A DNA stretch of 64,000 bases from Dendrobates tinctorius (Eukaryota). Each line of letters opens with the position of its first letter. The first letter of the stretch is position 1. Position numbers and translations under genes: made by a program. The notes under the pieces are model-generated. The model did no database searches. It saw only the letters and a list, made by a program, of their open reading frames with translations, and was not told the DNA's origin. Shown here one piece after another: positions 19,001 through 20,944 of the stretch. The stretch is from assembly GCF_039654945.1 (NCBI RefSeq), contig NW_027361792.1, forward strand, positions 4,278,001-4,342,000, given 5' to 3'.

Positions 19001-20944
19001 CCCTGCCTTGAACCCTGGCGTGGCTCATAGCACGCACCCTGCCTTGAACCCTGGCGTGGCTCCTAGCACGCACCCTGCCTTGAACCCTGGCGTGGCTCCT
19101 AGCACGCACCCTGCCTTGAACCCTGGCGTGGCTCATAGCACGCACCCTGCCTTGAACCCTGGCATGGCTCATAGCACGCACCCTGCCTTGAACCCTAACC
19201 CTGGTGTGCCCTCTGCACGCGCAGGACTCTGCCTTGAACCCTGACCCTGGCGTGTCTCTTTGCACGCGCAGGACTCTGCTTTGTTTCTTGTGCTTTGGCG
19301 TGTCTCTACACACGCACCCTATCTTGTTTGTTGTACTTTGAACCCTTCTGTCTTGTACCTTGTGCCTTGGTGTGTCTCTACACATGCGCCCTGTCTCGTT
19401 TGTTAAGCCTTGAACCCTGGCGTGTCCCCTACACATGCACCTAGCCTTGCACCTTACCCTGGACCCTGGTGTGTCCCTAGCACGCATCCTGCCTGGAATC
19501 CTGCCTTGGACCTCGGCGTGTTCCCTAACACGCACCATGCCTGGAGATCTGTCATGCCTCCTTGCCTGAACCCTGGTTTGCCTGCCGGATGCCCGGAACC
19601 TGCCGATCGCTGCCAGAGATTGTAGGCCTGATGACTGCGGCCTGATGTCCGGAGTTGATGTCCGCAGCCTGATGCCCTGATCGTGTCGATCGTTGCCAGC
19701 TGTCCGGAGTCCGATGCCATTGTGCCTTTACCTGTACCCAGGCGTGCCTCCTGGCCCGTAACATGCTATGGACCTTGGCGTGCCCACGCACGCACCCTGC
19801 TGTGTTGCTTGTTTTCACGTTCACACTGAATGTTATCCTGAAGTTCTTAATGAAGATACCTTGAACTTATCTCTTGTCTTCTTGCTTCCTGCTCGTCCTT
19901 GTCGTCAGATACTTGCAAATTGTGTTCCCCTGAGCCGGCCGTCTGGTCCTAGCAGTCGTGGTGGCTCACCCCCTTGGTCTTGCCCCTGACGCTCCCTGTA
20001 TAGGGGGTGGTTTCTCACAAGGTAAGCTGTTGTGAGTTCATTTTCCCCTTCACTACTGAGGCCCGAGGAACTCCCTCTTCTGGTAAAGAAAGGTAGTGAG
20101 CCTGATTATCAAACACCTGAGTCTGATGATGATGACTGGCTGAGTGGAGTTACTGACTGGATATAAGGCTGCCGACACCCTTCTGCCCTGCGGGTGATTT
20201 CTCTGTGGGATCCTTGGAGACCAGTCTGAATTCCTGCTCCTCTAAAGCTAAGTTTTCTGCTCAGCCTTTTGCATTTGTGCTTAGACTTTGTTTTGCTTTG
20301 TTTTTCTGGATTTCTGCCATTCCCTGCTGGGGTGTGCTGAATTCCTTTAGCTCTGTCTTCTGAAAATACCTGAGTGCTGATTTAGTTTTTGAAGCCTAGC
20401 TGCTTCAGCGTCTTTTTCATATCAGCTTGTTGGCTTATGTCTGATAGGGTTTTGGCAGATTGCAGACAGCAACCTTCCTTTCCTGTTCTGTTTAGCTAGC
20501 TTGGGCCCCATCGTTTGCTCAGCCTATCTTTCTATCTGTGTGAGTGTTTTTTCATCTTGCTTCACCGTCATTATATGTTGGGGGCTGCCTTTTACTTTGG
20601 GGTCTGCTCTGGGGCAGTTTAGATTTCCTTTTCTGTCTTTAGGCTATTTAGCGCTCCGGCTGTGATCGAGGGGTCTAGGGCATCGTAGGAACCCCCCACG
20701 GCTACTGCTAGTTGTGTTGATAGGTTCAGGGGTCTGCAAACTGATAGTTGCCAACTTCTCTGGTTTTCTGGCCGTAGCTTCTATTTTTGTGTCTGCCTCC
20801 TACGGTGACTCAATCATAACAGAATCACCCGCCATACCGCAGATCCTAGGGTACTCAATAGCAGGAAAGAATTGTAAAAAAAAAAGTGTAGATTTTTTCC
20901 TCTATATCTCTGAGGCCGTAGGGGGAATTTTTTTTTTTCTCTCA

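Follow-up and report, generated by a model that had tools for sequence, protein, structure and literature searches.

The 64,000-nucleotide stretch of Dendrobates tinctorius DNA analyzed here (hereafter the window) harbors a chromovirus whose parts and neighbors are collected in table 1. The assignment to the chromoviruses (Ty3/gypsy, Metaviridae) relies on the TG...CA LTRs, the polypurine tract (PPT), the gag-PR-RT-(RH)-IN order, and the chromodomain. Pfam searches assigned gag, protease, and reverse transcriptase (RT) domains to ORF1 and integrase, SH3, and chromodomain to ORF2, where the integrase's C-terminal end carries the chromodomain (PF00385, E 8e-15). When aligned, the LTR pair differs at 17 of 794 bases and by one 2-nt indel, which indicates a fairly young insertion. 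Transversions account for 11 of these 17 differences and transitions for six, which is unusual for neutral decay, and at 20177 and 20740 the base of the 3' LTR is present in nearly all aligned contigs. Apart from the TATA-like box, the 5' LTR has only one other TATAW motif, at 20572, and neither AATAAA nor ATTAAA was found in the LTR by motif search.

Table 1. Positions of the chromovirus, its parts, and neighboring features in the window
Feature	Positions	Strand	Remarks
LTR chromovirus element	20028-25251	+	Dendrobates tinctorius, NW_027361792.1 window
5' LTR	20028-20821	+	TG...CA, 794 bp; delimited by self-BLAST and by aligning it with the 3' LTR
Predicted U3	20028-20189	+	part of the 5' LTR
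Predicted R+U5	20190-20821	+	632 nt, part of the 5' LTR
TATA-like box TATAA	20162-20166	+	28 nt before the primer segment
Predicted self-primer GCGGGTGATT	20190-20199	+	predicted first 10 nt of the RNA; exact complement of 20823-20832
Putative primer-binding site (PBS) AATCACCCGC	20823-20832	+	without TGG; 1 nt after the LTR end
ORF1	20945-23161	+	gag, protease, RT in a single frame; ATG at 20945; stop just past the deletion junction
ORF1 motifs	CCHC 21647, DSGA 21806, YLDD 22724	+	gag, protease, and RT, respectively
Deletion junction	23146-23161	+	frame change; about 181-183 codons (RNase H and linker) gone
ORF2	23146-24537	+	integrase (HHCC, core, GPY/F-SH3) and chromodomain; frame differs from ORF1
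Polypurine tract (PPT) AAGGGGGAGG	24443-24452	+	3 nt before the 3' LTR
3' LTR	24456-25251	+	796 bp
Left target-site duplication GTAAGC	20022-20027		6 bp if the ends are TG...CA
Right target-site duplication GTAAGC	25252-25257		repeat of the left flank
Older solo-LTR-like repeat	17938-25334	+	insertion target of the chromovirus; TG...CA, duplication GAAGG, about 2.17 kb
Tc1-like transposase remnant	16857-17442	-	adjoins the solo-LTR-like repeat
FADD-like gene	27092-27436, 29972-30277	+	DED exon and death-domain exon; downstream of the 3' LTR by about 1.85 kb

Insertion Site and the RNase H Region

Three readings fit the flanks of the element, namely TG...CA ends with a duplication of 6 bp, ends longer by a single base on one side or the other with a duplication of 5 bp, and CTG...CAG ends with a duplication of 4 bp. 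A literature search by title gave nothing relevant to 6-bp duplications. Since a C precedes TG and a G follows CA at the internal junctions as well as at the flanks, the 5-bp and 4-bp readings fit equally. Duplications of 5 bp were found in five relatives with readable flanks and in the older solo LTR, which itself holds internal 36-nt and 96-nt tandem repeats. Ten contigs of run X6 join the two flanks in the manner of an empty site; the flank being itself a repeat, they may derive from other copies of it. The nested insertions span 16857-25339 of the window, in which two more Tc1-like DDE transposase remnants (2437-3069 and 55926-56516, both on the minus strand), and a LINE-type RT fragment recognized by eye from its translation (13288-14454, minus) were also observed. 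A telomere-like TAACCC array (15000-15650) is interrupted by an assembly gap of 455 bases (15064-15518) and lies on either side of it. The downstream gene is named FADD-like from its pair of DED and death domain.

An earlier note on this DNA had stated that the copy lost its RNase H, and this was borne out, as no Pfam RNase H was found in ORF1 or ORF2 and the codons are missing near 23152. Both sides of the junction were matched in 97 of the 120 relatives listed, 77 of which have 181-183 additional residues in between. In two scanned relatives, the Pfam RNase H begins where the alignment of the window ORF1 stops, and nothing in the window matched the RNase H region of the relatives significantly, the best E being 0.43. 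In two contigs of run X15, the match breaks off at 23152 and leaves 4 and 12 letters unaligned, which weakly suggests that the sequence of other copies differs from here on. Codon loss and frame change thus leave the element without the intact RT-RNase H-integrase frame of an autonomous element; with its RNase H gone and its integrase out of frame, the copy is non-autonomous. It would at most be mobilized in trans, with RNase H provided by an intact member of the family. The primer segment, the PBS, the PPT, and the LTR ends are intact in this RNase H-less copy.

Primer Segment, PBS, and Predicted Folding

The segment at 20823-20832 is the exact reverse complement of 20190-20199, giving ten Watson-Crick pairs. 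The positions that the earlier note had assigned to these two segments and to the TATAA box, together with their complementarity, proved exact, and its remark that no TGG-type tRNA PBS follows the 5' LTR also holds, TGG being absent from the 24 nt downstream. A single G (20822) separates the CA end of the 5' LTR from the PBS 10-mer and can form a G.U wobble with U20200 as an eleventh pair. The primer 10-mer is unchanged in the 3' LTR, at 24618. No variant fell within the primer or the PBS among the 40 listed of 403 variant rows, a subset that cannot serve as evidence. All four runs aligned to the window consist of contigs, and those of X18 (organism B) leave 20067-20300, with the primer segment, uncovered.

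Folding of 20190-20945 predicted the pairing of the two segments with probabilities of 0.93-1.0 for the first nine pairs, 0.31 for the tenth, and 0.13 for the G.U at the eleventh, and an alternative extension of the duplex through 20202-20205 was also obtained. The fold as a whole is no stabler than those of shuffled sequences (z -1.0). When the PBS is kept from pairing, the element can fold into a U5 hairpin that ends 4 nt before the PBS and, in nested order with it, a U5-leader stem that begins 6 nt after the PBS. The fission-yeast element Tf1 requires a three-duplex "pretzel" around its PBS, according to the part of bioRxiv 2022.12.06.519325 consulted, and the predicted flanking stems of the window element are not better than those of shuffles (z -0.57). 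This comparison is a weak one, since in five relatives the flanking-stem z ranged from 0.43 to -2.33 and fell below -2 in only one.

Relatives of the Element and Covariation of Primer and PBS

The best protein matches were elements of Ranitomeya imitator (RT 81-82% identical), which is why the family is called amphibian, followed by elements of fish (RT 55-62%). In the RT tree of 49 rows, the window element is sister to the Ranitomeya elements (support 100/98), inside a clade of 24 rows (100/99) whose named members are all from frogs or fish, including Takifugu proteins. The tree was built without Sushi-ichi, Amn-san, or a plant chromovirus outgroup set, and the placement runs through the Takifugu, other fish, and Ranitomeya database proteins. 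By these sequence relationships, the RT is assigned to the vertebrate V-clade of the Tf1/sushi group. Two further traits of this clade were also observed, namely the lack of a tRNA-type PBS, judged by the missing TGG and by comparison with human tRNAs, and a PBS in which at least 10 nt are complementary to an LTR segment located just behind the TATA box. As many as 55102 contigs of run X1 align to the window stretch, which shows that the family is abundant in its host. No second pol-bearing element was found within the window; the other inverted matches of the window scan all lie outside pol-bearing elements, the longest of them being AT-rich. One search of viral contigs returned 0 loci, and others gave the loci L080 and L081.

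A total of 118 loci were found, of which L080, a single 19-nt exact match with neither LTR nor pol similarity, was dropped as a chance match, leaving 117 to be screened. The last 37 of these loci (L082-L118) are LTR-retrotransposon RT matches inside bacterial genome assemblies, where they are probably eukaryotic contamination; one of them, L085, comes from a Brevinema bin and is close to a Takifugu element. The locus listed directly before them, L081, was negative in the primer/PBS scan. The loci taken as testable (49 of 117) were those that matched in the RT and offered 1500 or more scanned nucleotides upstream. A locus was scored as positive when, 0-5 nt past a CA end, it carried a stretch of 11-12 nt complementary to a segment behind a TATA box.

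By this definition, 21 of the 49 relatives were positive, in comparison with none of the 49 reverse-complement controls. Six distinct primer sequences occur among the 21, many of which are copies of three families and hence not independent cases. The positives lie mostly outside the vertebrate clade. In most of them, the spacing from the TATA box is about 31-34 nt, compared with 28 nt in the window. The other 28 relatives were negative in this strict scan, and those inspected (L016, L018, L050, L055, and L085) showed short or mismatched runs. When PBSs and LTRs were compared all against all, for 13 loci together with the window element, runs of 10-11 bp were confined to pairs in which PBS and LTR belong to one family; for the window PBS, the score is 10 in the element's own LTR and does not exceed 8 in the others.

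Two vertebrate-type relatives, L004 and L085, were testable, and the window is the sole frog family covered. L004, which falls inside the fish clade, has an 11-bp match between primer and PBS located 4 nt after the CA end. In comparison with the window, it differs at four of ten primer positions, every one of which is mirrored in its PBS. Compensatory changes, which the earlier note had suggested looking for across families, were found, in L004 as well as in the six primer sequences of the positives. In L004 (5117-5190 across the circular join), U5 contains a stretch, GTGTGTTCT, that could also pair with the PBS, as a rival to the self-primer, when inspected by eye. L085 forms 10 of 11 pairs (reached in 5 of 2000 shuffles), and a TTAAGG box precedes its best partner by about 28 nt, a spacing estimated by eye; its PBS also forms 9 of 11 pairs in the window LTR and hence discriminates weakly. 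A third relative, L010, has a PBS of the same form, for which its contig, covering part of the LTR, offers no partner. All four vertebrate-type PBSs (window, L004, L085, and L010) share the form AA-N6-7-GC followed by CA.

Origin of the Primer

Taken together, the complementarity beyond chance, the covariation, the V-clade RT, and the lack of a human tRNA match support the earlier inference that the family is self-priming. We consider it very probable that the family primes reverse transcription without a tRNA, in the manner of Tf1, and that the present copy, which lacks RNase H, would depend for this on an intact member. In this process, Pol II would start at or near G20190, as the TATA spacing suggests, and the first 10-11 nt of the RNA would pair with 20822/20823-20832 across about 630 nt of R-U5, a step for which the complement is observed and the folding predicted. 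By analogy with Tf1, the RNase H domain of the RT would then cut after nucleotide 10 or 11 and release a 3'-OH, from which the RT would extend into U5 to give minus-strand strong-stop DNA. The PPT at 24443-24452 is observed and would prime the plus strand.

That the complement arose by chance is extremely improbable. In the repeat-rich window, 107 of 8816 pseudo-LTR positions match by at least 10 bp, and this is what can be said for such an origin; when a TATA box at the right distance is also demanded, only 5 of the 8816 positions remain. After dinucleotide shuffling of the LTR, 31 of 20000 sequences matched by at least 10 bp, and a single one of 20000 did so together with a TATA box 22-36 nt upstream. 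The recurrence of the same layout with other sequences in the relatives, and its absence from their controls, likewise stands against chance. We also regard it as very unlikely that a host RNA (a tRNA half, a tRNA fragment, or a small RNA) primes at the PBS, with the complement in R serving as a regulatory long-range stem or surviving as a relic. Priming by half-tRNAs exists in some Ty1/copia lineages, as far as the excerpts of the literature consulted go, and the comparison made here was with human sequences. It used 261 human tRNA headers together with mitochondrial tRNAs (PMC13023127 file 5), among which a control motif gave 144 matches. Neither GCGGGTG nor GGGTGAT was present in this set, in which line breaks could hide a match, nor was any 7-mer from the primer's first eight bases, and GGTGATT had one match, internal to mt-tRNA-Cys. 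The comparison of PBS and tRNAs proposed by the earlier note hence returned, for these human sequences, no match to the start of the primer. No tRNA gene was found in the window, and within 17900-25400 no Rfam family passed the threshold. The missing TGG argues against a host primer, and the PBSs vary between related families and track their own LTRs, which a fixed host primer would forbid.

It is likewise very unlikely that the element is self-priming with details unlike those of Tf1, through an RNA start somewhat upstream of 20190 or through a different cut length of the primer. The TATA spacing in the window, shorter than in most positives, and the alternative extension of the duplex through 20202-20205 would suit such a shift. 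Pairing of primer and PBS is moreover predicted for every 5' start from 20170 to 20190, so that folding cannot place the start of transcription. The initiator rule for transcription starts is a pyrimidine before a purine, and the complement ends sharply at G20190, behind a pyrimidine, in an initiator-like context. In both L004 and L085, the complement also begins with GC behind a TATA-like box, as it does in the window, which favors a start at this base. Within the self-priming reading, the primer might be 10 nt long, one shorter than that of Tf1, so that G20822 would be the first base copied and would be kept at the integrated end, with ends TG...CAG and a 5-bp duplication TAAGC; we hold this to be unlikely.

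The priming mechanism itself is already on record for the group. The portions of the literature available call self-priming a trait that Tf1/sushi elements commonly have, in hosts ranging from fungi to vertebrates (PMC6317226, PMC4600332, bioRxiv 2022.12.06.519325); all three sources refer to Butler et al. 2001 (J Mol Evol 52:260) for it. RNase H cleavage after base 11 is reported to make the Tf1 primer (PMC7175516). The earlier note's account of a mechanism known from Tf1 and proposed for vertebrate sushi-like elements agrees with these passages. The V-clade includes Amn-san of Xenopus tropicalis (PMC2774666), which in Silurana is the LTR group of greatest abundance (PMC4131045), according to the sections consulted; as far as the main text of the latter was covered, PBS and self-priming are not mentioned. 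The literature searched, from which most subscription papers were missing, yielded no bench experiment on self-priming by a vertebrate element, and the passages of PMC7472051 and PMC4340606 brought nothing further here.

Like the known vertebrate Tf1/sushi elements, the window element combines a chromodomain integrase, a CCHC gag, an RT of the frog/fish clade, and a non-tRNA PBS complementary to the start of R, although the family is distinct from them, with its own primer sequence and a copy devoid of RNase H. With Tf1 of Schizosaccharomyces pombe (as well as Tf2, Tj1, Tosmo1-3, and Tcry1), it shares the complementarity of the RNA's first bases to the PBS and the chromodomain; Tf1 and Tf2 have gag and pol in one frame, and ORF1 of the window likewise encodes gag, protease, and RT in one frame. 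It differs in having ten Watson-Crick pairs and a possible G.U instead of the 11 pairs of Tf1, a duplication of 6 bp in the TG...CA reading instead of the 5 bp of the Tf1 group, and an LTR of 794 bp with an R+U5 of 632 nt, in comparison with LTRs of 244 bp in Tj1 and 392-395 bp in Tosmo elements, as given in the parts of the sources consulted. For the plant chromoviruses of the Tcn1 clade (REXdb), whose hosts are moss and club-moss and which were not included in our RT tree, the available text predicts self-primers by a rule of at least 10 bp located 0-5 nt after the LTR, a rule that also describes the window.

The primer/PBS signature is hence an expected hallmark of the group to which the element belongs and leaves the known mechanism unchanged. 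What the window contributes is a frog example in which the changes in primer and PBS are mirrored in comparison with fish-type relatives, for a mechanism proven in yeast and, in the literature found, only predicted for vertebrates. The abundance of the family in its host makes it feasible to map the ends of its RNA and cDNA in tissue. A 10-nt primer, if true, would link the length of the primer and a non-standard integrase end in a vertebrate family of high copy number. Dependence on tRNA has been described as a vulnerability in the part of PMC7472051 consulted, and a tRNA-independent family, as this one probably is, would escape silencing by tRNA fragments at the PBS.
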